From a phage, in the sequence record PZ386969.1: DNA of 64,000 nt. The stretch is one strand, 5' to 3'. A program made the position numbers and the translations under genes. Position 1 is the first letter of the stretch, and each line of letters opens with the position of its first letter. A model generated the notes under the pieces. That model saw nothing but the letters and a program-made list of their open reading frames with translations, made no database searches and had not been told where the DNA came from. Positions 6,932 to 48,666 of this stretch are shown here, one piece after another.

Positions 6932-8155
6932 TTATTCAGGTTTCTTCAAACGGTCCAGCAAATTGACGGAACCACGTTTGAGCACGACTTCATCACAACG
7001 TTGCTTATACGCACTACCATTCCCGTCATACCCCACCTTTCCTCGAGGTTTCTCCCCGCGCATCACTGCCTCAACACAGCGGGTATATTTCTGAAGTTCA
7101 CAGAACATGTTCTCCAGCTGCATAACATTCATGCAACGATCTTCCGGTTCTTCTGCCGACCAAAATTCATTACGTTTATACCCATACTGAGCGAACAATT
7201 GATCTTGATGATCACGAACCCAGAATATGCATTCTTCATGCGTCATGCCGTCCTTGTCCAAAAATAACAGATCGATACCAGCACGGCAACCTGGACCAGC
7301 GATAGTGAAGTGGTTTTCACTGAATGGATATTCATCGATGTATGTAAAATCAACCCAAATCTGGTATGCCAAGAATGGTCCAAGCCCCTCAATGTCGTCA
7401 TACATCGCCTGGTAAACAGAGTCGGGACGGCTAAATTCCCTGAGGCGATCAAAGTAATGAGGGTGTTTGTTGACGAATGCCTTCAGGGAGCGGATGACAC
7501 GCATTGGCATGTACGGTTCCCAACCTTCGATGGTGTAGAAGTCCGGCTCTGCTTCAGCGATGGCCTTGGCTTCCTTGTAATCCATGTTCTGGGTTGAACC
7601 GTCTTTACAGATCAGATTCACCATCATCCCACCGAAGCGCTGCTCCTTGTGGTTGACAACTAGTTCGGGGAAAGCCAGGCATTGTTTCAGACCGCCTGTA
7701 TTAAACGCATTGGTGAAAACTTTGCCACCTTTAGATTCGAATTCCTGAAGAACACTTCGACACCATTCAAGATTTATGTTTCCGAATTCTTCGATCGTCC
7801 ATGGACCACCCAAAGCCTGTATAGGTTCCCACATGTTGTACATGCGGAACAATACACAGTTGAACATTTTGTCAGATAGCGTGAGATCCTGATTGAGGAT
7901 GATATTATTGATCAAATTTCGAGACTGTCTATCGTGCTCTCTCCGCACGTTACAAAACTTGACTTGGCGTAATACCGGATTATCCGTCCATGGCGCTGGA
8001 AGGCATTGCACGTCCTTCTTGACATGTATCGCATAACGATCCCTCATCCATTCATATGCCAGCTGACGGTGGAATGAACTTAACATAGGATGGGCTGATT
8101 TGATTTTGGTTTCACGGACACCGCAATATGGGATGTCATATGGTTTATCTTTCAT
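6932..8155 (-). CDS. hypothetical protein (407 aa)
   Basis: ATG start with AGAGGA RBS; flanked by terminator hairpins 6848-6868 and 8179-8199; function not recognised. Confidence 0.6.
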   Translation of the reverse strand: MKDKPYDIPYCGVRETKIKSAHPMLSSFHRQLAYEWMRDRYAIHVKKDVQCLPAPWTDNPVLRQVKFCNVRREHDRQSRNLINNIILNQDLTLSDKMFNCVLFRMYNMWEPIQALGGPWTIEEFGNINLEWCRSVLQEFESKGGKVFTNAFNTGGLKQCLAFPELVVNHKEQRFGGMMVNLICKDGSTQNMDYKEAKAIAEAEPDFYTIEGWEPYMPMRVIRSLKAFVNKHPHYFDRLREFSRPDSVYQAMYDDIEGLGPFLAYQIWVDFTYIDEYPFSENHFTIAGPGCRAGIDLLFLDKDGMTHEECIFWVRDHQDQLFAQYGYKRNEFWSAEEPEDRCMNVMQLENMFCELQKYTRCVEAVMRGEKPRGKVGYDGNGSAYKQRCDEVVLKRGSVNLLDRLKKPE

Positions 8156-19925: not shown

Positions 19926-19977
19926 ACACGTTATCTCCGGTTAAGTTTGGCACATCATATAACGAATCCCCAAAATG

Positions 19978-20026: not shown

Positions 20027-21361
20027 TTAGAAAAGTCCCTTAATTAACCCTTTGCGGAAATACACGTTGGTGTCCTTGGCGATACCATCCGCAGTCACAT
20101 AGACCTGTGGATCCTGGTTCGCTGGGATCTGAACGAACGGGTTGGCACAAATCCCGTAGCGGGTCTTGAACGCCATGCGTGGAGCGAAGGTGGTTTCACC
20201 CTGGGTGCGGTACATCTCCAGCGGAACGTATGGGGCGAAGAAGATACCAGCATCCAGCGCGGTTGCGCCTTTGTATGCCAGGGTGATGTACTCTGCTACT
20301 GCATACGGGTCGATGTAGACACGCATACCATTAGACAGCACACCAGCGAAGGTCTGGCCAGTCGGATCAATCGCCAGCTTGGTGTTTTCCTGCAGCGCCG
20401 GAGCATAATCCAGCATGCCGGACATCGCCAGAGCGGATGCTACGTTCGGGGAGCACAGAACACGGTTGCCTTTACCACGACGGGTGTCAACACCGATGCC
20501 GTTCGCTTCGACTTCCAGCATGAAAGTCATGTACTTCCATTTTTCCAGCGCCCAACGACCGGAGATGTCAGTGGAGATATCTACGATACCGTTGGTGCCG
20601 AATTTTTTGAAGCGTACTGCGCTGAAGTTCATGGTGCGGATAAACTCACGGTTCATCTCTGCCTGAATTTCAGTTACCATCACGTCGGACAGGATGCTGT
20701 CAACGTCTTCGCCGTGGATCGCCATCATGTCCTGGCGCAGTTCATGGCTGTAGTCAGCGTACAGGCCGCGAGACTTCGCAGTCACGGTTGCTTTCTGAAC
20801 GGTGATACCAACACGTGCCCATGGGTTAGTGGTGGTGCCCAGCAGTTCAGCGTCGGAAGTTGACATGCCTTTACCGATGGTGGTGGTGGCAGCGCCGGAA
20901 CCTTCGATCTCAGTCTGGGTAAAGCCAGATGGGTCGCCAGCCTGAGCAGTGTCGTCACCAGAGTAGCCAGAATCAGCTTCCTGCATGAACAGTTCTTTAC
21001 GGGAATGTTGGGTGTTGGATCCGCCGTCTGAAATGCCCTGGCGAGCACGCAGAGCAAAGATCTGACCGTCAGGACCAGACAGCGGCTGAACGCCGAAGAA
21101 GTCCATCGCGATGTTGACCGGAGCCAGACGTTTGGCCATGTCGATCAGGACTGGCTGCCATTTGCCCACAGAGGCGTTCACGGAGCCAGGAGCGTCGGAT
21201 TCGCCCAGGTTTTTGGCGTTCCACTCAGCCTGGTTTTGCAGCAGACGGACGGCAACGTTTTCGGCAGAAAGCGGCTGGATGCTTTCAGATTCTTTCTGAA
21301 GAACTGGCAGCCACTGCTCGCGCATTTGTTCGGTAACAAGTTTCTTAGCCATGATGGTCAT
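20027..21361 (-). CDS. gp23: major capsid protein (gp23-like)
   Basis: FGVQPLSGPDGQIFALRA, FAGVLSNGMRVYIDPYA and C-terminal FRKGLIKGLF match T4 gp23; strong terminator hairpin immediately downstream. Confidence 0.9.
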   Translation of the reverse strand: MTIMAKKLVTEQMREQWLPVLQKESESIQPLSAENVAVRLLQNQAEWNAKNLGESDAPGSVNASVGKWQPVLIDMAKRLAPVNIAMDFFGVQPLSGPDGQIFALRARQGISDGGSNTQHSRKELFMQEADSGYSGDDTAQAGDPSGFTQTEIEGSGAATTTIGKGMSTSDAELLGTTTNPWARVGITVQKATVTAKSRGLYADYSHELRQDMMAIHGEDVDSILSDVMVTEIQAEMNREFIRTMNFSAVRFKKFGTNGIVDISTDISGRWALEKWKYMTFMLEVEANGIGVDTRRGKGNRVLCSPNVASALAMSGMLDYAPALQENTKLAIDPTGQTFAGVLSNGMRVYIDPYAVAEYITLAYKGATALDAGIFFAPYVPLEMYRTQGETTFAPRMAFKTRYGICANPFVQIPANQDPQVYVTADGIAKDTNVYFRKGLIKGLF

Positions 21362-21443: not shown

Positions 21444-21776
21444 TTAGCCGTTGATGCCGAAGCGACGATTATAGTCGGCCAACTGACGCTTGATAGATTC
21501 TTTCAGCTCTTTGTCTGTTTCATCTTCATCGTCATCTTCATCGCCTTCTTTCTTAGGCTTTTTGCCTTCGGCTTTAACATCTTTGTTGTCGTCATCGCCG
21601 TCTTTTCCGCCGACTTTGTCTTGGAAGTCATCGTCATCGTCATCGCCTTCTTTCTTCACGGACTTACCTTCTACCAGGTTGCGGAAGGTGTGTACGCGGG
21701 AAGCGAATTCGCTTTCGGTGGTGAACTGCACAGCTTCCAGCAGATTGACAACCGTTGCTTTCTTGGTGTCGACCAT
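21444..21776 (-). CDS. acidic protein; probable C-terminal part of the scaffold (gp22-like) gene in a shifted frame
   Basis: VVNLLEAVQFTTESEFASRV resembles T4 gp22 VSALVEGMDYSDAFSSKLSAIV; poly-Asp/Glu tail; overlaps the 3' end of the upstream ORF by 106 nt. Confidence 0.5.
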   Translation of the reverse strand: MVDTKKATVVNLLEAVQFTTESEFASRVHTFRNLVEGKSVKKEGDDDDDDFQDKVGGKDGDDDNKDVKAEGKKPKKEGDEDDDEDETDKELKESIKRQLADYNRRFGING

Positions 21777-22294
21777 ACCTCACAGATACGGGCGATCACA
21801 GAGTCACGCAGAGTCGCATTCGCGGCTTCTTTGATTTGACGGTTTTCGCTTTCGGCAATCGCAGCACGTCGTTCTGCTTCGGTCAGGCGGGCAGTCAGCG
21901 CAGCGATCTGGCCGTTTTCGTCGGTGGCAAAGTTGATACCAGCTTCTTTCAGAACACCAGTCAGGCCAGCCAGCAGATTTTCAGCCGCTTCACGTTTGAT
22001 CTGAGCGTCGATGGCAGGAGCGTTCTTGTTAGCCCACTCTTCTACAACCGCGTTCAGGAAGCCATCGACTTTGGTCGCAATTTCCATCAAGTGAGACTCT
22101 TTCAGCTGAGCAATCTCAGCCTGATGAGCTTCAACCAGACGCAGGCGCTCAATATTGGCAGCGTTTTCGGTTTCTTGAATAGCGGTCAGGCGAGCGGCTT
22201 CTACTTTAGATTCCAGCAGACCAGACACTTTATCCAGGAAGTCGGTGCTGAGGCCGTTAACGCCCTCAAACAGTTTTTGCAATTCAGGTTTCAT
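21671..22294 (-). CDS. gp22: prohead scaffold protein (gp22-like), N-terminal part; 3' tail probably out of frame
   Basis: Helical Ala/Glu-rich sequence similar to T4 gp22; last 35 codons Cys/Trp-rich and atypical; late motif ACTAAATA 27 nt upstream; AGGAAA RBS. Confidence 0.65.
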   Translation of the reverse strand: MKPELQKLFEGVNGLSTDFLDKVSGLLESKVEAARLTAIQETENAANIERLRLVEAHQAEIAQLKESHLMEIATKVDGFLNAVVEEWANKNAPAIDAQIKREAAENLLAGLTGVLKEAGINFATDENGQIAALTARLTEAERRAAIAESENRQIKEAANATLRDSVIARICEVWSTPRKQRLSICWKLCSSPPKANSLPAYTPSATW

Positions 22295-22319
22295 GATTGT
22301 TTCCTTCTGAACGATTTTC

Positions 22320-22339: not shown

Positions 22340-23008
22340 TCAGCCCAGATGTTTCAATGCGATATCGAGGCGGCGCAGGAAGTCGTCTTCTAACTGAATA
22401 TTGGTTTTCACCAATGAATCGACCACATGCCCCTTAATGTCCTTAGGAACCCAGATTCCTGAAGATTCATCAAGCTGCCATTCCACAGATTCGCTCACAG
22501 CCTTTACATAACAAACTTGTCCAGAAGGACGGTCGACTGCATCAACAGCAGTGAGCATAAAGCCGGGTTGAACGTCATCATAGCCGTTCACTGACTTGGT
22601 CTCACCAAGGCCACGTGTAGACACGGCCAGGTTGAAGTCTGCTTCAGCCAGAGCACGAATGATCTGACCTTTCGGTGTATTCAGGATCCGCGCTCGACCG
22701 ATAGCGTTGGTGCCTTCCCAGCGCAAAGATTCGGTTTTGAGTGCAGCGTGTTCGATATCGGGGAAAGGATAATCCGGATGCTTGAGTTCACCGATTGCAC
22801 GACGATCCTGGATATACTCTTTGTCGTATGCTTCGACAGCAGGGATACCCACCTTTTGGAGATCGTAGTTGCGACCATTACGGTTCACCTGGTTACACAT
22901 CACGAATGGACCTTCGATGTACATGGCTTTGCCGCCAGTAGCCGTGGCCGCTTCACCAATCTGAAGGTCTTTCCCTATCGCAGTGATCTCACGCAACAGT
23001 TTCATCAT
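22340..23008 (-). CDS. gp21: prohead core protease (gp21-like)
   Basis: YIEGPF..NRNGRNY, GELKHP and STRGLG resemble T4 gp21. Confidence 0.8.
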   Translation of the reverse strand: MMKLLREITAIGKDLQIGEAATATGGKAMYIEGPFVMCNQVNRNGRNYDLQKVGIPAVEAYDKEYIQDRRAIGELKHPDYPFPDIEHAALKTESLRWEGTNAIGRARILNTPKGQIIRALAEADFNLAVSTRGLGETKSVNGYDDVQPGFMLTAVDAVDRPSGQVCYVKAVSESVEWQLDESSGIWVPKDIKGHVVDSLVKTNIQLEDDFLRRLDIALKHLG

Positions 23009-23541: not shown

Positions 23542-25236
23542 TTATTCTTCACCACCAGGAGGGTTAGTCGCTGGGATGACGTTAGGTCTGAATTTCAGTG
23601 GACTGACTTCCCCGCTGCCGAAGCCGCCGGACTCATCTGCCTGCACTTCAGGGTATTTGCCTTCTTTCTTCTCTTTCGCGATCTTCTCTTGCTGGTCTTT
23701 GATGTCTTCATCGGACATACGCAGCAAATTGCGTTGAGCAAAATCGATAGAGAAGAGAGTGCCGATATATGGTTCGATCTGACCGAGAGCCGCCATACGC
23801 TGTGACAAGATTTCGTTCTCTTGTTGTTCACGGATGAAGCTGTCAGAAGTGAATTCGAACTTGACGAACGGCTTGATCTTCTCATTCCAGTCAGCCTGAT
23901 CTGTAATGCCTTTCAATATCAGTTGACGGCGCAGAAGTTCCAGGAAGATACCAGAAGAATAACGACGGCGCAGGCTCGCACAGAACTTGTTGAAGCGCAG
24001 TTCTTCCTGGGTGATTTCAGCAAGATTGGAACCACCAATGTTGATGGAACCTTCCTCTTGTAGACGGCTCTTAGGGATCATCAGAGCCTCGTAGAGCTTC
24101 TCGCGGAAGTATACCACATGATCCATTTGACCCAGTTGATCGCCACCGCCTACGTTGGAGATCTCGGTTGCGTTCTGCCCTTCGCGACGTGGTAGCCAGT
24201 AGTCCTCAGCGATACCCATCAAATGAGTGTTGCCAGCCACCTTACCAGTGGTGCGATCATACGCCAGACGGTTCTTGAATTTACCCATCATGGCTTGCAT
24301 GTATTCTTCGGCCGACTTCTTACCCAGCGTACCCACGTCGAGATAGAACGCTCGCTTCTCAGGAGCACGTGTGATCGCATAGATCACAGTTGCATCTTCA
24401 GTTGTAACAAGGTTGTTCAGGGGACGGATAGCTGGGTTCAGCAGGCTTGGTACAACCCCATTCGCCAGAGGCTCTTCACCACTGTCCAGATACACGATGC
24501 TCTCATCGTCGAACACCAGCTCTTGCTGTGACGGTTGGAAGTTCTGAGACGTACCGGACTGGCCAGTGAATTGGTTGCGGTTGTAGTTCGGGTTGTAGTA
24601 GTATTGAAGTTTTACGTCATTGATGACTTCGATACCGTCGCGCATCGCCTTTTGAACGATGTACACTGGGCGGATACAGCGTGAGTCCATCATGATGAGT
24701 TTGGCGATACCCGCTTTCTTGTTCTTCGGGTCCACTACAACGTGGAATGCCTGACGGCCTTCAATATACCATTTGCGGATCTTCTGATACGCCGTGTTGT
24801 CAAAGTCAAGGAGATGCATGATCTCTTTGAATGCTTCAGTGATCTTCTCTTTGACTTCGTTTGTGATGCCATCTACCTTTTCCAGGTTGATGGTTACAGG
24901 AGTCTCGTCCTCTTCACAGGTGACGATGTCGTTGACAATGATATCCACAGCCTTACGAATCTCAGGCTGCTGAGCCATAGACTGGTACTCTTCGACCAGC
25001 TGTTTGACGTTGAGCAACTCATTCTCAACACCAACGAAATTGAATGTGTTCGCGCCGCCCTGGAGGATGATCGAACCATCCTGAGAATCGTCCAGCGCAA
25101 CAACAGTCGCTTTTGAAAGCAACTTCTCTTCTTGGTTCGTGACCATCTTGTCGGTATCAATCGGCGCTTCTACTTTGCCGCCTCTGCCGAACAAGCCGAA
25201 GAACCCATTTCCGAATGCACCATTACCGAATGCCAT
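23542..25236 (-). CDS. gp20: portal protein (gp20-like)
   Basis: ITRAPEKRAFYLDVGTLGKKSAEEYMQ and EDYWLPRREGQ match T4 gp20 RITRAPDRRVWYVDTGNM and EDYWLQRRDGK. Confidence 0.85.
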   Translation of the reverse strand: MAFGNGAFGNGFFGLFGRGGKVEAPIDTDKMVTNQEEKLLSKATVVALDDSQDGSIILQGGANTFNFVGVENELLNVKQLVEEYQSMAQQPEIRKAVDIIVNDIVTCEEDETPVTINLEKVDGITNEVKEKITEAFKEIMHLLDFDNTAYQKIRKWYIEGRQAFHVVVDPKNKKAGIAKLIMMDSRCIRPVYIVQKAMRDGIEVINDVKLQYYYNPNYNRNQFTGQSGTSQNFQPSQQELVFDDESIVYLDSGEEPLANGVVPSLLNPAIRPLNNLVTTEDATVIYAITRAPEKRAFYLDVGTLGKKSAEEYMQAMMGKFKNRLAYDRTTGKVAGNTHLMGIAEDYWLPRREGQNATEISNVGGGDQLGQMDHVVYFREKLYEALMIPKSRLQEEGSINIGGSNLAEITQEELRFNKFCASLRRRYSSGIFLELLRRQLILKGITDQADWNEKIKPFVKFEFTSDSFIREQQENEILSQRMAALGQIEPYIGTLFSIDFAQRNLLRMSDEDIKDQQEKIAKEKKEGKYPEVQADESGGFGSGEVSPLKFRPNVIPATNPPGGEE

Positions 25237-25302: not shown

Positions 25303-25836
25303 TTAGAGAGACTTGTCTGAAATGGCCTGGAAGTAACGCAGGTCAACAGTGAACTGAGTATAAGAGTCCATTGCAGACATGTCCAGTTCCAGCTGACCGA
25401 GGTTCTGAGGCCAGGCGCCCTGAAGGGTCCAGGTCTTGGTGACATTGTCATTCGCATCCAGCAGTTCCATGATTACATCACGGAAATAATCATCTGGGTT
25501 AGCAGACGCACGGTTGTTGTTGCTGCCGTTGATGTACTGCTGCCAGACTTCGAATGCGTTGTACGGGGCGTTGTCCACAACGTTGATAAACGTTACAGGC
25601 AGAGCCTCAAAACGACGGTCACCTGGGAATGGAAGTTCACGACCACCCCATGGGACGAGTATCTCCCCGAGCTGGCCTGTTGGGGTATTTGTGGTCACCG
25701 CCAACAGCGAAACATCACGGATGGTATCGCTTCCAGCCACGAAGGAAGGGAAGTTAACAGTCACACGCCAACGGTGTTGGCGCTGAACGCCACCCCCGCG
25801 TGACATAGCTGCTCTGAATTCATTAACTGTAGCCAT
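25303..25836 (-). CDS. gp19: tail tube protein (gp19-like)
   Basis: 177 aa; position and C-terminal similarity to T4 gp19; late motif ACTAAATATTT and GAGGAGAA RBS. Confidence 0.75.
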   Translation of the reverse strand: MATVNEFRAAMSRGGGVQRQHRWRVTVNFPSFVAGSDTIRDVSLLAVTTNTPTGQLGEILVPWGGRELPFPGDRRFEALPVTFINVVDNAPYNAFEVWQQYINGSNNNRASANPDDYFRDVIMELLDANDNVTKTWTLQGAWPQNLGQLELDMSAMDSYTQFTVDLRYFQAISDKSL

Positions 25837-25871: not shown

Positions 25872-25917
25872 TTGAAATAAATGGGGGTTAAAATACTCCA
25901 AAGTGAGGATATTTATT

Positions 25918-27702
25918 ATGCCATTCCCCGATAAAAATTGTTTATGCTGCCACAAACCGTTCACCCCAACCAGGAAGGCTGCGTTGTATTGTAGTGACGA
26001 ATGTAAATCATTCATGCTGGGAACGATGAAACGTAATCCGGGTTTGTTGGATGACATCCCGACGACCGAAACCGAATGCCGCTCTTGGGTTGATAGTAAA
26101 CTCAGGAAGAAAGATGGTTCGTTGAACTACAAACTTATCTCTCATCCCCTACTCACGGCCCATACTGGGGTTGATGTTGTTGGATACGTGGTGTCACACA
26201 ACGACCTATTAGAAGAACCACAAGCGATAACTGCTTGGCTGTACGATATTCCGAAGTCGCAGTGTGCCACTTGCGGTGCTGACGTCGGCTTAGAAATGGA
26301 AGTCCAACCACCTAGATACAAAAAGTTTTGTTCCGAAGAATGCCAACGAGAATCAATGAAGGTGGGAGGCTCAGAACGGGCCAACCTAGAAAACGCCATA
26401 ACAGAGAAATATGGCGTAGCCAACATATTCCAACTGGAAGAAGTAAAACAAAAGTCACGGGAAACTGCCCTTAAGAAATATGGGGTCGACCACCCTATGA
26501 AGTCTGATGTTATAAAGGACAGAGTGGCTGCTTCCGTCATGGAACGCTATGGCGTATCACACGTCATGAAAATGCCAGAAGTGAGGGAAAGGGTGATTGA
26601 GACTTGGAGGAAGATCTATGGTGTGGATCATCCAATGTTCCTCAATTCCATTATAGAAAAGAGAAAGAAAACATGCGTCTTAAAATATGGGGTTGATTAT
26701 CCGTTGAAGGTAAAGGCTATATGGGATAGAAGCCAGGCCAATATCAGGATCATTTCAAAAGAAAAATACGGCGTACCTCACTATTTCTCTTCTGAAGAAT
26801 ATAGGAACTCTTTCACATACCCCAGCAGTCAAAGCCAAACACAGCCAGAAATAGAAATATGTTCATACCTGGATTCATTGGGCGTCGTTTATGAATCTGG
26901 TAATTTCTCCGTCCTCAGAGGTAAAATGTTCGACGGGAGGGCGACCACACGCCAGATAGACATATACTGCCCAGAACATAAGTTGGCAATAGAATTTAAT
27001 GGGTTGTATTGGCATTCGGAGAAACATCGATACAAAGACTACCATCTTGAAAAGACCATGCACTGTGAATCACAGGGTATTCAATTAATCCATATCTGGG
27101 AAGATGAGTGGCGTGACAAACAGGAAGTGGTTAAATCACTCCTTAAAGCAAAATTGGGGATAGGGAAACCATTGTCATACGCTCGCCAACATACCATTTT
27201 GGAAGGCTCCTATAGGACGTCCAAGGACTTTCTCGACCGATTCCATATACAAGGCGGTGTGGTGGCGACAGATTATATACACCTTGTAGACAAAACTGGG
27301 AATATCCAGGCGGTGATGTTGTTTACCAAACGAGTGCATGGTATTGAATTGGTGAGATTTGCTTCTAACAATTGCCATGGCGCATTCTCACGCTTGCTGA
27401 AATATTATATCGCTCGACATCGGGGTGAGACAGTATATTCTTTTGGTGATCGTTGTGTTGTCAGTCGTCTGAAAAATGTTTACCTGAATAACGGATTTGT
27501 TGAAAAGGAAATCCTTCCCCCTGATTACAAATATGTGACACCAGACTATAGCTTACGTATACACAAATTCAATTTCAGGAAAGAGAAATTCCTTAAACTT
27601 GGATATGATATAGAAGGTAAAACAGAGGATATGCTGTCGGTAGAAGCTGGGTTGGGGCGTATCTGGGGGTGTGGTCTCATCCGGTATGAACTGGAAAACT
27701 AA
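25918..27702 (+). CDS. free-standing nuclease, probable homing endonuclease (zinc ribbon + five KYGV repeats + PD-(D/E)xK Vsr/DUF559-like domain)
   Basis: Plus-strand ORF between minus-strand sheath and tube genes; RQIDIYCPEHKLAIEFNGLYWHSE...IWEDEW nuclease motif; start moved from GTG 25903 to ATG with GTGAGGA RBS. Confidence 0.7.
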   Translation: MPFPDKNCLCCHKPFTPTRKAALYCSDECKSFMLGTMKRNPGLLDDIPTTETECRSWVDSKLRKKDGSLNYKLISHPLLTAHTGVDVVGYVVSHNDLLEEPQAITAWLYDIPKSQCATCGADVGLEMEVQPPRYKKFCSEECQRESMKVGGSERANLENAITEKYGVANIFQLEEVKQKSRETALKKYGVDHPMKSDVIKDRVAASVMERYGVSHVMKMPEVRERVIETWRKIYGVDHPMFLNSIIEKRKKTCVLKYGVDYPLKVKAIWDRSQANIRIISKEKYGVPHYFSSEEYRNSFTYPSSQSQTQPEIEICSYLDSLGVVYESGNFSVLRGKMFDGRATTRQIDIYCPEHKLAIEFNGLYWHSEKHRYKDYHLEKTMHCESQGIQLIHIWEDEWRDKQEVVKSLLKAKLGIGKPLSYARQHTILEGSYRTSKDFLDRFHIQGGVVATDYIHLVDKTGNIQAVMLFTKRVHGIELVRFASNNCHGAFSRLLKYYIARHRGETVYSFGDRCVVSRLKNVYLNNGFVEKEILPPDYKYVTPDYSLRIHKFNFRKEKFLKLGYDIEGKTEDMLSVEAGLGRIWGCGLIRYELEN

Positions 27703-27728
27703 AACCCCGCCGAAGCGGGGTTTGTTTT
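27703..27728. terminator. bidirectional terminator between nuclease gene (+) and sheath gene (-)
   Basis: AACCCCGCCGAAGCGGGGTT with T-runs on both sides. Confidence 0.65.
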
Positions 27729-29622
27729 AAGAGGCTGCAACGATACCACCGCCGGATTCGATCTCACTGAATTCCATGTCTGGTCGAACGGAAGCAAAAT
27801 CCAAAAATATCCAATTTATTGAGTATTCCGGCTTGAGCCAAATGCCCGCGACCATGGTGTTGGCTGCGATAACTTCCGCAGTATTGTTGTCCTCATCACA
27901 CTTCACCATCCCGTCATAGATCGCGCCCATGTTGGCCAACTGGCGGATATATGGGCGGACAGCGTTGCTGAACAACCCACGAGTGAATGCATCGTTGTTC
28001 TCACCAAGGTAGTATTTGGCGATGGCTGCGATGTTTTGCTCTGCCATAATGAACAGACCACGAACGTTGATGCGGTCGAACGCAGATGGGCGGGTCAGGC
28101 CAGTCTTGTCGCCGTACAACACGATGCCTTCGTTGGAGAAGGTGACAATGCTGTTGATCTGGTTGCGATACAGCACAGCACGCTCATCAGAAGACGCAGA
28201 CCACGCCATTCGATTATAGTTGTTGTATTTACCACGGTTGTGGAACGCCGGAGATTTGTAGATACCCGCGATTTCAATGCTTCGCGCCCAAACACCTGCG
28301 GTGCCGCCACAAGCCGGAATCCAACGCATTTTGTCGTTGTACTTGTCGTACACATACGCCCAGTTGTCATCCATGAAGAAGTAGGAGGAGTCGCGAACAA
28401 GGCTTTCACGCCAGGCCACAACATCATCCATCTCACGACCACGGTTCCCGACGACCGCATCGCGAAGAGGAGACACGAAGGACACGGTGTCTTTACGCTC
28501 AGTGGACAGGTCGATCAGCGCCTGCTGCTCAATCAGTTCTTCACAGAAACCGAACACTGGCTTGGCATCATATGCTTCGGCGTTGTTCAGTGCCTGGATA
28601 GCCGCAACACGGTTCCCAGTGTAATCGTCTACACCACCTTCGAGTTCAATGACACCAGCAGCCAGGGTAGTGGCGAAGGTGTACACCCAATTTGAGGTGC
28701 CGTTGATCACGTCTTTGAAGTACGCATTGGATCCATCAGATTTCTTAGAACCCTGAGCGGTCTGCACCAGTTCATACTTCTCGATGATCGTACCGGAAGC
28801 ACCAACAGTGGTGACGGCAGCGGTAGCAGTCAGACCATTCGCGTCTGGAACAATCGCAGTCGCAGCCTGAGGACCGATTGCTTTGTGAGTGACGGTGACG
28901 GTGTTGGACTTCACAACAACAGAAGAATATACTTCAGACAGCTCCGTCAGCGCAGTTCCGATCTTGGTCGCCAGAGTCGCCGGGGTGTCAGCGTCAGTGT
29001 ACGCCACGGCTTTACCAGCAACAGAGATGGAACCAGCAGCGGTGGCAGTACCGGATACAGAGATACGATCAACCTGACTAACAGCGCCAGAAGAGTCGGT
29101 AATGCGCCCTACTTTGTCAACGATGGCGATATGGTACTCGCCATCCTGCGGAGCATATGCGAAGTTGTTACGGAATTCCCAGGTCGGGAACAGCGTAGCA
29201 TCACAGATGTTCACAGCAATGTCGTTACCCAGAGAGCCAGCATAGCGGCCTGTCCAGGTAATAGACGCAGATGGGGACGCGGTTTCGAAGTCTAGTTTGT
29301 TGCGGATAAGGATTGCAGTCTGACCTTTGGTTACAGCGTTGCGTGCCGCCGGACCGACCACACGGGTCACCCATGCAACAGAGCTGTAAGACAGGAAGTC
29401 AGCAATCACTAAGAAGTCGGTGGCAGTTGCATCGTTTGGCTTGAAGAATTTCTTCACCAGACCAGTTTCACCACCAGTGACCAACACAGGGAGTTCTGCC
29501 TCACCCCATTGGAATTTGCCGACAGTCGCACCCTGAACAACAACGGATGGAGACGTCTGAAGCGTGGCATCACGCTCAGTCCACTGTACGGACGGCGCAA
29601 CGCTGAAGCTTTGAGTTGCCAT
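27727..29622 (-). CDS. gp18: tail sheath protein (gp18-like)
   Basis: GKFQWG near N-terminus as in T4 gp18; 631 aa; late motif CTAAATATC about 35 nt upstream; start moved to ATG MATQSF. Confidence 0.9.
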   Translation of the reverse strand: MATQSFSVAPSVQWTERDATLQTSPSVVVQGATVGKFQWGEAELPVLVTGGETGLVKKFFKPNDATATDFLVIADFLSYSSVAWVTRVVGPAARNAVTKGQTAILIRNKLDFETASPSASITWTGRYAGSLGNDIAVNICDATLFPTWEFRNNFAYAPQDGEYHIAIVDKVGRITDSSGAVSQVDRISVSGTATAAGSISVAGKAVAYTDADTPATLATKIGTALTELSEVYSSVVVKSNTVTVTHKAIGPQAATAIVPDANGLTATAAVTTVGASGTIIEKYELVQTAQGSKKSDGSNAYFKDVINGTSNWVYTFATTLAAGVIELEGGVDDYTGNRVAAIQALNNAEAYDAKPVFGFCEELIEQQALIDLSTERKDTVSFVSPLRDAVVGNRGREMDDVVAWRESLVRDSSYFFMDDNWAYVYDKYNDKMRWIPACGGTAGVWARSIEIAGIYKSPAFHNRGKYNNYNRMAWSASSDERAVLYRNQINSIVTFSNEGIVLYGDKTGLTRPSAFDRINVRGLFIMAEQNIAAIAKYYLGENNDAFTRGLFSNAVRPYIRQLANMGAIYDGMVKCDEDNNTAEVIAANTMVAGIWLKPEYSINWIFLDFASVRPDMEFSEIESGGGIVAAS

Positions 29623-29662
29623 AATCTTATTCCTTCTCTGTAGAGTTTCGCTCAATTTGAAA

Positions 29663-31885: not shown

Positions 31886-32588
31886 TGTCTTCACCTTCTT
31901 CCTTCGGCTGCGGCTCGGCCTGAACGTCGATTACATCTTCTTCGGGATCAGGTCCTTTGGACGCAGCTTTCGCTGCAGCACGTTCTTCAGCACGTTTACG
32001 GGCGTCTTCGATGGTCTTCAGTAGATCACGGGAAGACCTGGCCTGTTTACCGACGTTGACCGTGGTTGTGCCATCAGGGGACGTGGTGACCTCGACGGTT
32101 GTTTCATCTCCAGGAGGTGGCTCTCTGTCGCCCGTGACTGCCTTGATAGTTTTCTGGTTCTCCATCAGGTCTTTGTTCAGACCGCGCATGAGTTCACCCA
32201 ACTCTTTAAAGACTGTGAAGGCACGGGGTGCTTCAGTCGTCGTCGCAAGTTTGGCTGCCTGTCCCATCATGAACATCGTGGCTTCCTGCATGGCATAAGT
32301 CGTGTCACGGATGCGTTTGTAGTCGGTGGTGGCATCAGTGTCTTCGAAGTCTGGAACCTTAGACTCCTTGGGCTTCAGCTCTTCTGGGTCCAATGAAGGA
32401 GGAAACACCACAGGCTCATACCCCGCAGACTCATACCCCGCAGGCTTTTCACCCAACCATTCACCTGTATCCGGATCGTAATCTTTTCCAGCCACAGGCG
32501 AGGTCTTCTCCATGACTTCTTGAGCGACCTCATCTCGCGCTTGGATAGCACTGAGGGTGGATAATAGGCGTTCTGACATAGCACTCAT
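31866..32588 (-). CDS. terS: terminase small subunit (gp16-like)
   Basis: Central region resembles T4 gp16; overlaps terL start by 20 nt; start moved from TTG to ATG with GGAG RBS. Confidence 0.6.
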   Translation of the reverse strand: MSAMSERLLSTLSAIQARDEVAQEVMEKTSPVAGKDYDPDTGEWLGEKPAGYESAGYEPVVFPPSLDPEELKPKESKVPDFEDTDATTDYKRIRDTTYAMQEATMFMMGQAAKLATTTEAPRAFTVFKELGELMRGLNKDLMENQKTIKAVTGDREPPPGDETTVEVTTSPDGTTTVNVGKQARSSRDLLKTIEDARKRAEERAAAKAASKGPDPEEDVIDVQAEPQPKEEGEDNGVSEA

Positions 32589-40740: not shown

Positions 40741-42657
40741 TTACATAACAACTGCGGCAGATATGTATCCTGAATCTTGATACGATCCAGAAAGGTCAAA
40801 AACTTCTAAGTTAAAAGAGTCAGGGGATGTACTTACGACATTAATTACTAATTTCCCTCCGCTAGTGGTATTGCCAACACTGCATAAAACAGCATAAGCA
40901 GAGGAGGGCATAGTATTAGATAGGTTGACGGTATATTTACCGGTCCCGGTTTTAGTTACAGTTGCTCCATCCGCATACACTGACGACCCCGAAATTCCAT
41001 TAAAATTGATCATTGCCCGTGTACATGCACTCGACCTTTTTGCGACGGTAGACCCAATAAATGCGTATTCTTGGGCCTTGTTAATATAAATCTTATTAAC
41101 AGAAGTGTCAGGTACTTGTAAGACGTTATCTATAACAACATTACAGGCTGTTGCTCCAGATACGGTAGAGCATCTATCTATCTCATAATTGTCGATATTA
41201 ATAGCCCTTACAAAACCTATACCCCCAAATGCTGACCAGTTTTGTTTAACAAGAACACCGGAAATACCGGACAGGAAAATAAGATCGCCTGTCGTATCTT
41301 TGCTAAACGTGTTGTTGGTTATTGAAACAGAAGAAGAACGCGGTGAGTGACTATCATCTGCAACATATACCCTGGCTAAAGAAGAAGCAGTATTCTCTTC
41401 AAAGTAGTTACCATCTACCAGTAACTGCTGTGCACCCCCGGCGACAACACCTACGTCATAGCCCGTGTTTGCTTCAAATAGAGAGTCTCTGACTATGAAA
41501 TTTCGTACACTACTTGCAGTACCTGAGTCTCCGATAAGAACACCGTTAACACCATCAAAGAAAGTACAATTATCAACTTTAACTACGTTGATATCTACTT
41601 TTGACGTTTTTACACCATTTGCACATTTAGCGAAATAGCATGAAGTTAGCTCAGCCACCCCGGAAAAATAGTCTGGGGCGTCGTAATGTAAATAAACACC
41701 GTACCGGGCGTTTCTGACAACGCAATCTTGAAGTTTTAGGTACCAAGCCCCTCCGAAATCAAAACCATCAGACGATGAGTCCTGAATATCCAAGAAAAGT
41801 CCAGAAATCTTAGCTCCTATCGCACCACCTTGAACCCGAATGGCGGGTGACGCTAACCCGGTAAACTTAATTACTGAACCTGTTGTTTGGTCATTAACAT
41901 GTCCAAAACTATTACCAACAATACATAGACTATCAGTGGCAGTTATGATTAAAGTAGAGCTTATAAGATAAATACCATCCGGTATGTATAAACTCTTTTT
42001 CGAATCTATTGCTGCCTGAAACGCGGCGGTATCATCGGTCACACCGTCGCCAACAGCCCCGAAGTCCTTGACTGACACCAGGTCTTTATTTTTATCATGT
42101 AGTGTTCGCTTAATGGAGTTGGCCAGAGGTGACTTAAATCCGACCAGACCAGCGCCATCATCAGATGCAAGATTGATTCTCAAGGCTGCATCACCAACAC
42201 TAACCCACTTGTCTAACCCAGTACCTCCAGCACTTTCAGGAGTTGAGCCAGAAGAAACGGTTTTAGGTAACTCACCATCCCAGCGATACTTACCTGTTGT
42301 ATGGGTAAGCAATTCATTTTTAACATTAAGTGTAGCACCATTGTCAAACGACCCAGACAATGTAACGTATTCTTCACGAGATACGGCTAATTCCCCAAGA
42401 TCTACGGAACCAGCTGAATGTACAAGTACGGCATTAGTACCAAGACTTACAGCAGTCACCCCCGAACCAATGTCAGCAGGCAAGGAATAGGCACGCTGAG
42501 TAGCCTTATCATAAATTACTTTGTAACCACCTAAGTCTACACCTACAGCAAAGTAGACTACCTCATTCTGTTTAACACCAAACTTACGGGCAATGGCTTG
42601 CTTATTGGTAAGAATACCAGTAGAGCCTTTACCACCTTGTGAGAACATTTCGTTCAT
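40741..42657 (-). CDS. tailspike-like protein 1 (638 aa)
   Basis: Gly/Ser/Thr/Asn-rich repetitive body; N-proximal module shared with the other two spikes; own terminator. Confidence 0.7.
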   Translation of the reverse strand: MNEMFSQGGKGSTGILTNKQAIARKFGVKQNEVVYFAVGVDLGGYKVIYDKATQRAYSLPADIGSGVTAVSLGTNAVLVHSAGSVDLGELAVSREEYVTLSGSFDNGATLNVKNELLTHTTGKYRWDGELPKTVSSGSTPESAGGTGLDKWVSVGDAALRINLASDDGAGLVGFKSPLANSIKRTLHDKNKDLVSVKDFGAVGDGVTDDTAAFQAAIDSKKSLYIPDGIYLISSTLIITATDSLCIVGNSFGHVNDQTTGSVIKFTGLASPAIRVQGGAIGAKISGLFLDIQDSSSDGFDFGGAWYLKLQDCVVRNARYGVYLHYDAPDYFSGVAELTSCYFAKCANGVKTSKVDINVVKVDNCTFFDGVNGVLIGDSGTASSVRNFIVRDSLFEANTGYDVGVVAGGAQQLLVDGNYFEENTASSLARVYVADDSHSPRSSSVSITNNTFSKDTTGDLIFLSGISGVLVKQNWSAFGGIGFVRAINIDNYEIDRCSTVSGATACNVVIDNVLQVPDTSVNKIYINKAQEYAFIGSTVAKRSSACTRAMINFNGISGSSVYADGATVTKTGTGKYTVNLSNTMPSSAYAVLCSVGNTTSGGKLVINVVSTSPDSFNLEVFDLSGSYQDSGYISAAVVM

Positions 42658-42681
42658 AACGACCTCTTTGTTTTTCTAAGA

Positions 42682-42705
42682 AACCCCGCCGAAGCGGGGT
42701 TAGTT
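42682..42705 (-). terminator. terminator after tailspike 2
   Basis: AACCCCGCCGAAGCGGGGTT, same sequence as at 19981 and 27703. Confidence 0.6.
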
Positions 42706-45210
42706 TTACGAGTAAGCACTCTCGAACTTACAAAACCAGGTTGCTCCTTCATCAGTTGTTGACAACCTAAAAACTTGTGTTCCAGCTGCTGTCAAAGATG
42801 GGGTATTGCTTGCTAATTTAACATTTGCACCAAATGTTATTGTTTTAGATGTTGTTGAACAGACAGCCAAAAGAACCTCAACATAACCAATTAGTGTATT
42901 TGTTAATACTGCTGGAGTTATTGTTACATCTCCTGTAACTGTAGCTGCGATGTAAGATGCGTCTGAAAAGTCAGGCGCATAACTTGCTGTTGGCGTCTCG
43001 AACTTTGGATTTCTTACCAATACAGGAACTCCAACATTTTTCCTGAAAATTGTACTATTGCAAACCATATCATACTCTATACCAACAAAATTCTTAGCTG
43101 CAAGTATGTTAGTAAATGTCTGGTCCGCAGAGTAAATATGAGTTATCAGCCTTGCCACCCATGCTGGTGAGTTTGAGTTTTCACACTCAATGAATGAACA
43201 GTTGATACTACCAACGGCGAATGGCATTAGTGATGCCGTATATGAAGATAGCCCTGCGTCATTAAACGCATTCATATTCACAAACGTCTGGCATTGAGAG
43301 AACGTATTACCGGTGGCTCCACCATCAATAAAAAAGCCAATCCCGCCGTTAATATAACCATCTACAGGATCTAAATTAGCTTTCGCGTAGTCCCATTTTG
43401 ATGGAGAATCTGCAAAACATTGATTGAAGGAATTGTTTATTGAGTTCTGTACAACAAAGCAGCATTTCATCCTTGAGTTCTGGTCAGTGACTGTATCGTC
43501 ATACATGCCCCAGTTGTGCACCTTACTAATTCTGTTATTGCCACCACCACGAACCCAGGTACCAAATCGGAAATAACGACCTTCACCCATACTAACCTGA
43601 TGATCGCTACCTTCAACAATGTGGGCTGTGCTGAGTGGATTAGTTGGTTTTAATACACCAACAGCATAAAACTTCAATAGGTGCACACCCATACCGCCAG
43701 CAATATGGATGCCATGACCATCAATATTGGCTACGTAAATGCCATCTAACTTGTTGGCATAACCATCAGATATTTTAAATCCATTAACAGTTTTTGCACG
43801 GGCATCAATTAAAAGATTGCTAATGTGCCCAGCGTATTGATTACCTGTACCTTTATCACACTTTACAGCATAACCAGATGAGTCTGCTATGAAGTCATCT
43901 GTCAGGTATACCCCACCGAAACCAGCATCAATGCTAACATCTCCGTGAATGTGTAGTGTCGTACTGATAGGATATTTCTTCCCATTCAGCCTGATAACTT
44001 TGCTTACAGTGTTAGGTTGTAGCCAGTCAGGATGGTTAGCAGCACTACTTGGTGCATGTTCTAAACCTGTTAAAGCTGCCGCAGCATCAATCGCATCCTG
44101 TAATGATGGATACATATCCGGGTTGACATTTATAATTTTCTTAAGCGCATTGCCAACAGTACCAGTTTCGTAATCAATTGACTTATCAAAACCTGAAAAA
44201 CCTGCTCCTGTAGGTTTAGCCAATTCTGACTTCAATGAAGCATCACCAACACTAACCCATGCACCTGTTCCAACACCACCGGTTGATGTAGTGGTTGAGT
44301 CAGCGGGGACAACTTTAGGTAGTGCACCCTCCCACGTATAGCACTGACCACCAGCGATGTGCCAAACAGCATCCGTTTCACTATTAACTGTTGCACCTTC
44401 TTCAAAGCTACCAGCAACGAGAGATAAACCTGCTTCTGCAAGTAAACGTCTCCACAATTCTCTGGTATTCGACTCTTGATGAGTAGGTAACAAAGTAACA
44501 GTAATATTACCTGGATTGTACGTTAACTGCCCATTACTAACGGATGAGATGTATATGTTAGAGGGTAATGAAGGTAACCCATATGACTTCTGCTCACTAA
44601 CAGAGTAGACAATCTTTTTACCATTCAATAATTGCGTAGTGTCAGTGCTAAGAATTACTTCACTGTCCTTAACGTTAGTTGCACGAGCGATTTCTTGAAT
44701 ACTTCGGTCAAACAACGGACTGATATTCGGTTGTTTAACAGACATTTCAGCGACTACCCAAACGCCTGCAGTCAGCGCAGTTTGTAAAGACACTTTCCCT
44801 GTCGTGCTGTCATAGGAATATTCAATTTCGGGTGTTTTGTACTCACCACCGATATAAAGAGATTGGACTCCATAATATGTGTAATCAGGAGTGAACTCGG
44901 TTTCACCTCCTATAGCCTGAAACTTATAGATTCGAACCCCGGTTTTATAATCTTCTGGAGACAGAATCTTATCAAACAGACAGAACACAACGTCACCTTT
45001 GGATAATGCGCGTCCGAGATTCAACGTATTTCCATCGATTTCAAAGTTGTCTAACGGAACTTGCATGCCACCGTTGATTGTGACTATACCAGTGACAGGG
45101 TAGAAAGGGAGGGAGATAAACTTCTCTCCACCCGTTGCTGTGTAAGTGTATGGAATCTGGTGCGGAGCTGTTACGACCGCTCCAAAGATGCTCTCGACGT
45201 TTCTGGTCAT
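42706..45210 (-). CDS. tailspike-like protein 2 (834 aa)
   Basis: Shared NVKD[ST]EV ... GGVGxGAW.SVGDA module; start moved to ATG MTRNVE after a late-promoter hairpin. Confidence 0.7.
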   Translation of the reverse strand: MTRNVESIFGAVVTAPHQIPYTYTATGGEKFISLPFYPVTGIVTINGGMQVPLDNFEIDGNTLNLGRALSKGDVVFCLFDKILSPEDYKTGVRIYKFQAIGGETEFTPDYTYYGVQSLYIGGEYKTPEIEYSYDSTTGKVSLQTALTAGVWVVAEMSVKQPNISPLFDRSIQEIARATNVKDSEVILSTDTTQLLNGKKIVYSVSEQKSYGLPSLPSNIYISSVSNGQLTYNPGNITVTLLPTHQESNTRELWRRLLAEAGLSLVAGSFEEGATVNSETDAVWHIAGGQCYTWEGALPKVVPADSTTTSTGGVGTGAWVSVGDASLKSELAKPTGAGFSGFDKSIDYETGTVGNALKKIINVNPDMYPSLQDAIDAAAALTGLEHAPSSAANHPDWLQPNTVSKVIRLNGKKYPISTTLHIHGDVSIDAGFGGVYLTDDFIADSSGYAVKCDKGTGNQYAGHISNLLIDARAKTVNGFKISDGYANKLDGIYVANIDGHGIHIAGGMGVHLLKFYAVGVLKPTNPLSTAHIVEGSDHQVSMGEGRYFRFGTWVRGGGNNRISKVHNWGMYDDTVTDQNSRMKCCFVVQNSINNSFNQCFADSPSKWDYAKANLDPVDGYINGGIGFFIDGGATGNTFSQCQTFVNMNAFNDAGLSSYTASLMPFAVGSINCSFIECENSNSPAWVARLITHIYSADQTFTNILAAKNFVGIEYDMVCNSTIFRKNVGVPVLVRNPKFETPTASYAPDFSDASYIAATVTGDVTITPAVLTNTLIGYVEVLLAVCSTTSKTITFGANVKLASNTPSLTAAGTQVFRLSTTDEGATWFCKFESAYS

Positions 45211-45216
45211 TTGAAG

Positions 45217-45253
45217 ATACCCCATAGAGGATTTGCCAATATGGGGTATTTAG
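45217..45253 (-). promoter_or_regulatory. late promoter CTAAATACCCCAT as 5' arm of hairpin; 3' arm ATGGGGTAT 6 nt before ATG 45210
   Basis: Inverted repeat ATACCCCAT / ATGGGGTAT with 15-nt loop. Confidence 0.55.
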
Positions 45254-45290
45254 TCTGAACTAATAAATTTATGAACAAAGGTATAACAAG

Positions 45291-45314
45291 AACCCCGCCA
45301 AAGCGGGGTTTGAC
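45291..45314 (-). terminator. terminator
   Basis: AACCCCGCCAAAGCGGGGTT followed by TG-rich tract. Confidence 0.5.
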
Positions 45315-45318
45315 ACTC

Positions 45319-45474
45319 CTATTCCAGACACATTTCAAAATGTATACCAACATCACCCCACCCATCATAAACAGACGACCCCGATATTCTTGATCCATCT
45401 ATGTTGGCGAAATAAAAATACGCTGACCCATCATTGATATCACCTATAAAGTTCTTATACCCGTTTGATGACAA
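45319..45474 (-). pseudogene. possible remnant of a tailspike C-terminus (51 codons, TTG start only)
   Basis: Frame reads ...ANIDGSRISGSSVYDGWGDVGIHFEMCLE stop, resembling the C-terminal end of spike 1; lies between a 3'-flank repeat and a terminator. Confidence 0.3.
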
Positions 45475-45490
45475 CCCGAGAGAGAGCCAA

Positions 45491-45540
45491 CAGCATTATC
45501 AATCAGGGTAATGAAAACAGTAAACTCTATATAATAAAAG
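45491..45540. repeat. 3'-flank repeat shared by tailspike cassettes (copy 2)
   Basis: AGGGTAATGAAAACAGTAAACTCTATATAA. Confidence 0.55.
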
Positions 45541-45562
45541 CCCCCAAAATTGGGGGCTTTTT
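45536..45562 (-). terminator. terminator after tailspike 3
   Basis: Stem AGCCCCC/GGGGGCT flanked by A/T runs. Confidence 0.6.
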
Positions 45563-45568
45563 ATTATA

Positions 45569-48500
45569 CTACCAGTAATACCAATCACCTTTTTTACTTC
45601 TGACTAGAATAGAACAATCGGTAACAGCTACTGTAGACACCCCACCAATCCTTATCTCATACAGTTTACTAGGCAATCTTTTCTTAGTTAGAGAGACTTT
45701 AAAATCTGTACCAGTTACAGTGATATATTCCGTCCCATCCTCACTATCTATCTGTAAATCTAGGCCGCTGGGACTTGCTGGGAGCTTAACATAAAGCTGT
45801 TGTTCTGCTGTACTACCAGCAAAATGACCGATAACTGTAGATGTCCACTCACTTAAAGTCAACCCTGAACGCACAAAGTCTACATTGAGCGGTTCCTTAA
45901 TAAGTGCAGCAGGTGCATTGTAATTATGCCCGTTAAGTACATAGTAGTTGCTGCTACCAACCTCTACTGTGTCTGCTGTGCAGTAAGAGTGGAAGGTTTT
46001 TGCGTTATCAAAGCGATATAGACTTCTGATTAGCACACGCTCTTGATTGCTTCTGGTTAAAATGCCACAACCTGCGGAAAGGTGGAGTGTGGAGATGGTA
46101 AGCGTATGACTTTCACTGTTGGCCTTGGATGACAGCAATGACACCTTGGGTTCACCCTCTTGAGTAAAGTCTTTACTATTACCCTCACAGTACATGACCC
46201 CAATGTCCCACGCAGCAGGGTCCATTGTTACTACCCCAGCACCTGCCGTATTCTCAGAGCAAATCACACCAACACTGGTAGACAAACCACGACCTAAGAT
46301 AATACCAGCACCTATTGTATATTTACTCGCATCATCCGTGATTGGGTCATAACCTAGTCCCGTAGACTTATCAGTACCCCATGCACTAATGTGAGGGAAG
46401 TGTGTAGCATTCACATAGGTATCCCCTTGCTCACCTTCTGTTGAATAACCTAATGCCATACCCCTTGCACAGTTGTTTGCATGGAGAGTGCCCATTTGAA
46501 AATACCAGCAAGCAAACATTACAATGCCATATCTATTAGCATTATATGCATAGATGCTACCCATCTCAGATTCTGCACACAGAAGACGTGCATAAAAACC
46601 ATATGATGCAATATCTGCACAGTCTACGTTTAAGCTACCGATTAAGCGTAATCCTCGCACTTGATTCTCTGTATTAGCCACATCCACTGTTGCTGTACCG
46701 ACAGGAAATTTACTAACGCGTACAACAGCTTTTAACGTAGGCCATACGGAGCCAATTGCTTTAATTGTTGCCCCGTTTAGATTCCCACGTAAGTAAGAAG
46801 GTATAACAACCTCATCCGTTACGTGGTAGGTAGAATTCCCATTCAGATTTAATGTACCTGTGGCTATAGCTAGTTTTATAGCAGGTAAACAGTCAAAACT
46901 AGGGTCATTGGGGATTGCACCAAAATTCTCAGGTGAGTGTTCATTAAACCCTGTTAGCTTACCAACGTTAGTCCAAGAAGAGTCTGGGGCAGCACCATAA
47001 CTAACAGGTAGTGTCCCATTGTACTTGTACCAGAACCCATCTGAATGTAGAACAACCTGATATTTATCGGATACATTCCCACCATCACCGAATACACCGC
47101 TCTTTTTGTAAAGAGACAGACTACCGGAATCAATAAGAGAAGAACCTTTCCAGGAGGCTAAACGTTGCTCTAATCCAACAACACCAACTACAAGCCATGC
47201 CCCTGGACCAACACCTCCTGTACCCAATGGGGTAGATTCTGGAGGGACTACTTTGGGTACAGAACCATCCCAACGATATTTAATATCGTTACTCACAACC
47301 AACTCATTCTTGGTATTAACAGTTACACCTGTATCGAATGAACCAGGTAAGGTCACATACTCCTCACGAGATACGGCTAATGCGCCCAGATCAACACTAC
47401 CAGCAGAATGCACAAGTACAGCCGAAGAACTAAGGCTGACTGCCGTGGTTCCAGTCGGTAGCTCTGGAATAAAATATGATCTCTGTGTTACTTTATCATA
47501 GATAACTTTATACCCGCTTAGCACAGCACCAACACTAAAATAAACGACCTCTGTATCTTTAACATTGGTTACACGAGCCACTTCCCGCAAAGTATGATCA
47601 ATTTGATTATAGATGTTTGGTGTTCCATTGATAATTACAACAACTTCATCTTCTGGTTCCAGTTCTTGCGCCAGAGTGATTTTACTGGTTAATGGATCGA
47701 ATGTGAATCCCAGATTTTTATACTGACGACTTCCGTTTATATCAATGGCCGGAACATCATCAACAACGACGTCCAACGTGATTTCGGTTTCACCGCCAAT
47801 CGCTGAACCCCCATTATAGACCCAAGTAATCGTAGAAGAACTAGAACCACCGCCATTACCCAATTGAATAGGAGTATATTCAATCACCTGAAGTTCTGTG
47901 CTGGCTGGCAAAGAAGGACTGAAAGTGATTACATTCCCATCTAGTGAATATTTGGATTCCGCAAGGCGTTTTCCGTCAGCATACACGTCCACGATTGTTG
48001 GTGGAGTATTGAGAGTGACAGTACTTGTTTCAGACGCCAAAATTTTTGTAAAGATTTCACGACTGTAGACACGGCCTTGGCCAAGACCGACGCCGGATGT
48101 AATAATCCAACCTTGTTCAGGTCCAGACCAAGTGAACGTTGCTGATACGTTATCAGTTGTTATAGCCATGTCTTCAGTGGAGCCATACAAATTATTTCCA
48201 GAAGGAGACACGGTCAATGGGTAAGTGGCAAATTTCCCATAAGCATCACAAATAGTAACGGAATCCCCAATACGCGTAGGGGAAGGGAGAACCACTGTAG
48301 ATGCCCCTGTGGTATTATTAATGAGATAGCCTCGCCCTTCAGTGAGCGTTGCCGTAGAGGCATGCGGAAGGACTTCCCAGCGGATGCCACCGCCACCCAG
48401 CGGCAACCAACCACCATTTTCGTAATAACCTTCGAATTCGTCGGAGTCGGCATTGTAGCGAACGGAAGACGGGAGTCCTGCGCTGGCATTACCCTCGGGT

Positions 48501-48622: not shown

Positions 48623-48625
48623 TTC

Positions 48626-48666
48626 AAATACCCCTAAATGTGTTCGTTTCATCTAGGGGTATTTAG
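48626..48666 (-). promoter_or_regulatory. late promoter CTAAATACCCCTA as 5' arm of hairpin; 3' arm TAGGGGTATTT 3 nt before ATG 48622
   Basis: Inverted repeat AAATACCCCTA / TAGGGGTATTT with 17-nt loop. Confidence 0.55.

Follow-up and report, generated by a model that had tools for sequence, protein, structure and literature searches.

A one-base deletion divides the gp22-type prohead scaffold gene in the sequence record of an Agtrevirus-like phage

The major scaffolding core protein of phage T4, gp22, is present in ~580 copies per prohead and is absent from the list of dispensable core proteins; its assembly proceeds together with that of the gp23 shell, and the gp21 protease cleaves it into small peptides (PMC9958956; PMC9546572). 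Within the subfamily Aglimvirinae, phages AV101 (gp22, WJJ54124.1) and vB_EcoM-RPN242 (gp22, UHS65578.1) have the same gene at the same position, 852 nt long and read in one frame. The copy described here, from a 64,000-nt stretch of phage DNA (record PZ386969.1; hereafter the window), shared 99% nucleotide identity with these genes, whereas it was 851 nt long and split. Overlapping open reading frames (ORFs), of which the downstream one is in the -1 frame, are also found in the tail assembly chaperone G/GT and in dnaX, which use programmed -1 frameshifting, and this layout resembles that of the window. However, those systems share a slippery heptamer that is conserved, in many cases accompanied by a stimulatory structure, and their layout is kept among relatives; all three features were absent in the window.

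The scaffold of the window belonged to the same family as T4 gp22 by profile match (PF25623, T4_CASP). The likeness to T4 extended to the gene order gp20, gp21, gp22, and gp23, with gp20 and gp21 separated by two small ORFs. Scaffolds of this type are abundant in proheads, are cleaved by the prohead protease, and are missing from mature heads. The acidic C-terminal region and the many (L/I)-x-E motifs, as read from the sequence, would be consistent with degradation by a prohead protease. In contrast to these similarities, the sequence relationship with T4 gp22 was distant and detectable by profile only, and the Ackermannviridae protein is known here from its sequence.

In a megablast search, the window was assigned to the Ackermannviridae, subfamily Aglimvirinae (ViI-like phage), and was nearest to the Agtrevirus-like Escherichia phages AV101, LHE287, RPN242, and ZQ1, with an identity of ~99% across the scaffold gene and ~97% across 25 kb. 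The order of protease (Peptidase_S77), scaffold, and capsid (Gp23 family) was shared by the window and all fetched loci. The head genes of the window were located as follows.

25236..23542, minus strand: portal, followed by two small ORFs and then the prohead protease
22340..23008, minus strand: prohead protease (gp21-like, Peptidase_S77), the upstream neighbour of the scaffold
21444..22294, minus strand: the whole gp22-type prohead scaffold (T4_CASP) gene, 851 nt (852 nt in the closest relatives)
20027..21352, minus strand: major capsid protein (gp23-like), 441 aa from the MAKK start, the downstream neighbour

The exact prohead protease of the window was present on 11 public contigs. The 441-aa capsid product starting with MAKK had an exact match in 35 blocks of the public protein collection, and the product of the longest capsid ORF (start at 21361, MTIMAKK..., 444 aa) was absent from that collection; the ATG at 21352 is the probable true start of this gene. 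At 19926..19972, on the 3' side of the capsid gene, the window contained only ~47 nt, where an endonuclease-like gene (490–636 aa) is located in most close relatives. The read-archive contig L020 (SRR10902857) likewise had no endonuclease-like gene after the capsid. The tail tube gene (25303..25836) and the tail sheath gene (27727..29655) were separated by an ORF of 599 aa on the plus strand (25903..27702), with a Pfam match to DUF7487 and weak endonuclease-like matches to MTES_1575 and DUF559. A GIY-YIG endonuclease occupies this site in RPN242 and AV101, and the exchange looks like a homing-endonuclease swap.

The scaffold gene of the window had no continuous ORF of ~270–290 codons and was composed of a 207-aa ORF and a 110-aa ORF, here called ORF A and ORF B; a continuous ORF of this size was obtained after re-insertion of one A. 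The preliminary description of this DNA had proposed a gp22-like scaffold gene split by a frameshift. Both ORFs were found on the minus strand at the coordinates it had given, and they covered consecutive positions of the T4_CASP profile. All points of that description proved right, and its reading of the locus as one scaffold gene split by an indel, with programmed frameshifting unlikely, was supported.

21671..22294, minus strand: ORF A, 207 aa; scaffold residues 1–172 plus a 35-residue out-of-frame tail; TAG stop at 21673..21671
21674..21778, minus strand: tail of ORF A, 35 codons out of frame, Cys/Trp-rich, overlapping the start of ORF B
21444..21776, minus strand: ORF B, 110 aa; scaffold residues 173–283; its ATG is the internal Met173 of the intact protein
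21779..21781, minus strand: lesion; GAG here, GAA then GGT in relatives, with a single A affected at 21780

Residues 1–172 of ORF A were matched to positions 1–168 of the 247-position T4_CASP profile of Pfam PF25623, with an E-value of 1.5e-30 and a score of 107 bits. This agreed with the earlier account of ORF A as gp22-like for ~170 aa and then Cys/Trp-rich, as the match ended where the 35-residue tail began. ORF B was matched to profile positions 170–238 with an E-value of 2.9e-5 and 24.2 bits, which alone was below the curated cut-off of 27 bits that defines membership of the family. PHROG 237, 'head scaffolding protein', was likewise matched by both ORFs, and there too the two matches followed each other along the profile. 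ORF B contained a conserved segment, an acidic tract, and a conserved C-terminus, and its computed frame relative to ORF A was -1 (22294-21776 = 518 = 3x172+2); the expected acidic C-terminal part had indeed been assigned to the -1 frame. The tail of ORF A, VWSTPRKQRLSICWKLCSSPPKANSLPAYTPSATW, contained 2 Cys and 3 Trp residues, whereas the repaired protein has a single Cys and a single Trp in all its 283 aa, and this excess fits a stretch that is read out of frame.

The junction of the two ORFs was aligned with four annotated relatives, AV101, RPN242, Shigella phage Ag3, and Dickeya phage LIMEstone1, in which gp22 is annotated as one CDS of 852–873 nt. An indel near 21776–21790 had been suspected, and the junction alignment, together with the indel lists against RPN242 and AV101, placed the missing base in GAA, the codon for Glu172, where one A was absent at window position 21780; this corresponded to a change from TT to T on the plus strand. 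The relatives had TGT GAA GGT ATG where the window had TGTGAGGTATG. When extended through the next codon, the junction was TGT GAA GGT ATG GTC (Cys-Glu-Gly-Met-Val) in the four relatives and TGTGAGGTATGGTC in the window, and the longer aligned string was TGTGAAGGTATGG in the four relatives and TGTGAGGTATGG in the window. The comparison with related gp22 genes that had been recommended thus gave the same result throughout: every relative examined had one more base and a single frame.

When the A was re-inserted at the lesion, a single ORF of 852 nt encoding 283 aa was restored, which corresponds well to the ~280 aa previously estimated for the two parts combined; T4 gp22 has a length of ~270 aa. 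The repaired protein was aligned with T4_CASP in one stretch (profile 1–237 of 247) with 147.3 bits, a higher score than both fragments combined, and it differed from AV101 gp22 by one residue (A109 vs T109).

The locus is best explained as the ordinary gp22-type prohead scaffold gene, present in single copy, of an Agtrevirus-like member of the Ackermannviridae, with one base lacking in the sequence as given. With an A missing from the Glu172 codon, the frame slips after codon 172, and 35 nonsense codons are read up to a stop. Residues 173–283 surface as a separate ORF B in the -1 frame because the first codon after the next Gly happens to be an internal ATG.

The stretch downstream of the deletion was intact. 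Over the 112 codons 3' of the lesion, the protein was 100% identical to those of AV101, RPN242, and the loci L016 and L017, and all nucleotide differences from these four were synonymous in the ancestral frame, with synonymous/non-synonymous counts of 2/0 against AV101 and 1/0 against L016. The loci L013 and L015 each showed one non-synonymous difference 3' of the lesion, at codon 251. The L016 gene was distinguished from that of the window by two substitutions and the deletion, and nothing more. Since the encoded protein was intact and its changes only synonymous, the lesion has no evolutionary age. Judged by this pattern, the stretch 3' of the lesion is free of decay, and the deletion is either not biological or extremely recent.

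The deletion was located on an I-C-E motif formed by residues 170–172 of the repaired protein (21779..21787, minus strand). The (L/I)-x-E sequence is the cleavage motif of the T4 prohead protease. A connection between the lesion and this prohead-protease-like motif was considered and was taken as coincidence, as motifs of the type [LI]-x-E occurred 14 times in the 283-aa repaired protein.

The deletion was unique to the window. In 22 of 22 related loci that were read, from isolates, metagenomes, and read-archive assemblies, the junction was unsplit. Beyond the four annotated relatives, these comprised 18 loci retrieved through exact matches to the protease and capsid proteins of the window, which included NCBI isolates, a JGI metagenome, ENA metagenomes, and Logan read-archive assemblies, and the junction was GAAGGTATGGT in all 18. 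A single T4_CASP gene of 280–284 aa separated the protease gene from the capsid gene in 8/8 of the matches listed for contigs with the identical protease and in 10/10 of the matches listed for contigs with the identical capsid protein. The closest public sequences were 97–99% identical to the window, and the deletion was in none of them.

The deleted junction was also searched for directly. A 61-nt query containing it gave no 61/61 match in 50,697 phage records; the best matches were 61/62 and covered 62 bases in their records. Exact-pattern scans of IMG/VR, GTDB (one genome per species), and JGI metagenomes did not contain the deleted junction, and the intact junction pattern was present in IMG/VR. 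Neither the truncated ORF A product nor the ORF B product was among ~15 billion public proteins, and the exact repaired protein had no public record. A prophage copy was ruled out, with no match in complete E. coli genomes.

When the repaired protein was used as a tblastn query, matches were obtained in 531 phage records, of which 60, evenly spaced along the ranking, were inspected. All 60 consisted of one aligned piece, with identities from 99.6% to 24% and extending to cyanophages (~25%). In 53 of these rows, the alignment started before residue 20 and ended at 201–209, hence crossing the junction at residue 172; the other seven started at residue 47 or 71 and likewise crossed residue 172. 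Masking of the low-complexity acidic tract by BLAST is the reason why the alignments extended no further than about residue 209. Labels of the form 'prohead assembly (scaffolding) protein (x2)' on several records were considered as a sign of a conserved two-ORF scaffold and rejected, the CDS pair being gp21 and gp22, each intact.

Recoding and independent translation were evaluated from the following elements of the gene.

22302..22306, minus strand: Shine-Dalgarno sequence AAGGA, 7 nt upstream of the gp22 ATG, read from the sequence
21780..21782, minus strand: TGA stop in the frame of ORF B, restricting a frame-restoring shift to 21779..21674
21758..21761, minus strand: tetramer A_AAG, a weakly shift-prone -1 site and the only one in the overlap; not a canonical heptamer

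Programmed -1 ribosomal frameshifting, or another form of recoding, would fuse ORF A and ORF B into the full-length scaffold, and the position of ORF B in the -1 frame with a ~105-nt overlap with ORF A is the geometry that such a mechanism requires. However, an X_XXY_YYZ slippery heptamer was absent not only at the junction, as had been noted before, but in the whole of ORF A, and the gene had no homopolymer longer than 5 to support transcriptional slippage. The 126 nt downstream folded no better than shuffled sequences (MFE of -31 kcal/mol against a shuffle mean of -30.97, z = -0.01), which gave no indication of a stimulatory RNA structure. The stop just upstream in the acceptor frame, mentioned in the preliminary description, was the TGA at 21782..21780. 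Furthermore, the relatives examined were single-frame with identical flanks, so a recoding signal had no chance to evolve. Programmed -1 frameshifting, already judged unlikely in the preliminary description, was effectively refuted by the heptamer and homopolymer scan and the RNA folding, and recoding of any kind is highly improbable at this locus.

It is equally hard to credit that ORF A and ORF B are two genuine genes translated independently, the former into the N-terminal core protein of the scaffold and the latter into an acidic C-terminal protein. ORF B does have an ATG start and the conserved C-terminal part of the family. However, this ATG is the internal Met173 of the intact protein, and the last 35 residues of ORF A are an unconserved out-of-frame read-through. 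A GAGGT sequence directly abutted the ATG of ORF B with no spacer, leaving ORF B with no spaced Shine-Dalgarno sequence and no usable ribosome-binding spacing. The stop of ORF A was 105 nt downstream of the ORF B ATG, so that termination-reinitiation or coupling is not possible. Independent translation of ORF B was rejected on these two grounds. Relatives with the same two-ORF layout were looked for and none was found, all those examined being single-frame across the junction. Among the three causes left open in the preliminary description, two separate genes can thus be dropped, while an indel error and a real mutation were both retained.

The sequence quality of the rest of the window was assessed by listing all gaps in the alignments of the window to RPN242 and AV101, of which ~55 kb could be aligned, and by a tblastn search of the window with 124 annotated proteins from the corresponding stretches of these two phages. 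Apart from the gap at 21780, gaps of a length other than a multiple of three were either compensating adjacent pairs in diverged patches or intergenic. Matches were obtained for 109 of the 124 proteins, and only gp22 was split over adjacent frames, into query residues 1–179 in frame -1 and 155–283 in frame -3. The remaining cases flagged by tblastn were exchanged tailspike modules, homing endonucleases that the window lacks, and genes truncated by the window ends. A generally error-ridden assembly was rejected, as gp22 was the sole uncompensated frameshift in a conserved gene in both the gap list and the search with 124 proteins. The isolation of the lesion argues against an assembly that is error-prone overall; a single consensus error stays compatible with it.

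Several features of the same comparisons were observed away from the scaffold gene. The tailspike and tail fibre genes (about 41800..48650) matched RPN242 and AV101 over their N-terminal parts only, with 30–88% identity, a pattern of receptor-binding module exchange that is typical of Ackermannviridae. A patch of ~1 kb (7065..8145) in a conserved hypothetical gene (RPN242 gp121 / AV101 WJJ54102) was much more diverged than its flanks, and its alignment was crowded with compensating gaps of 1–2 nt; this divergence suggests a mosaic replacement. The small terminase gene carried a 15-nt in-frame insertion (CTCATACCCCGCAGA, resembling a tandem duplication), and a 6-nt in-frame insertion was located near the overlap of the small and large terminase genes, each relative to RPN242 and/or AV101.

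32415..32440 and 31910..31917: terminase insertions, from the gap list

We infer that the missing base is rather likely to be an error of the sequence record, introduced by sequencing, assembly, consensus calling, or later editing, and not a property of the living phage. A record error is favoured over a fixed mutation mainly because of the need for the full-length scaffold, which is argued by analogy with T4. By this analogy, hundreds of full-length scaffold molecules would be needed for each prohead, and the sequence provides no means of making them from this template. Loss of residues 173–283 would remove the acidic tract together with a conserved segment and the conserved C-terminus, and would be expected from the T4 system to abolish or severely impair prohead assembly. 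Two points speak against a record error. The window was otherwise clean, although several lesions in 64 kb would be expected from an error-prone platform, and the lesion site was a run of only two bases (AA), an atypical context for homopolymer errors.

A genuine mutation would give exactly the same sequence as a record error. It is possible, though on balance unlikely, that the deletion is real and very recent, arising either spontaneously, as a frameshift in the phage stock used for sequencing, or in a defective genome recovered in a metagenome. Such a deletion could be tolerated through residual function, provided by the N-terminal 172 residues alone, by both fragments together, or by occasional -1 slippage, or it could be carried by a fraction of the genomes that is sustained by complementing wild-type phage. 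The window showed no other sign of poor sequence quality, the lesion was outside any long homopolymer, and the downstream part was perfectly preserved, as expected for a mutation without evolutionary age. If the record came from Illumina reads, a lone deletion in such a clean assembly would be unusual and would count towards a real mutation. In addition, the A_AAG tetramer at 21761..21758 could in principle permit rare -1 slippage and yield a full-length protein with six altered residues. However, gp22 is essential at very high copy number, if T4 is taken as the guide, and the allele was in no other public genome or contig of the collections searched. The ORF B start had no usable ribosome-binding spacing, and termination-reinitiation was out of its reach. 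That the deletion is real and the phage viable, living on a 172-residue coiled-coil core with a junk tail together with a 110-residue acidic fragment from Met173, or on low-level slippage at A_AAG, is very improbable.

The gene itself is already known, and the locus is most likely an isolated lesion in a well-known gene, with no new feature or biology. In annotation, the locus should be entered as a single gp22 scaffold gene flagged for a suspected single-base error, or as a frameshifted pseudogene if the deletion is confirmed by reads; neither two proteins nor a recoding site should be listed. Nothing in the sequence points to a real deletion in a viable phage, which would provide a modest natural experiment on the dispensable parts of a T4-type scaffold. 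If the two-fragment or slippage-rescue reading were true, the scaffold would be modular, or would be needed in far lower amounts than assumed.
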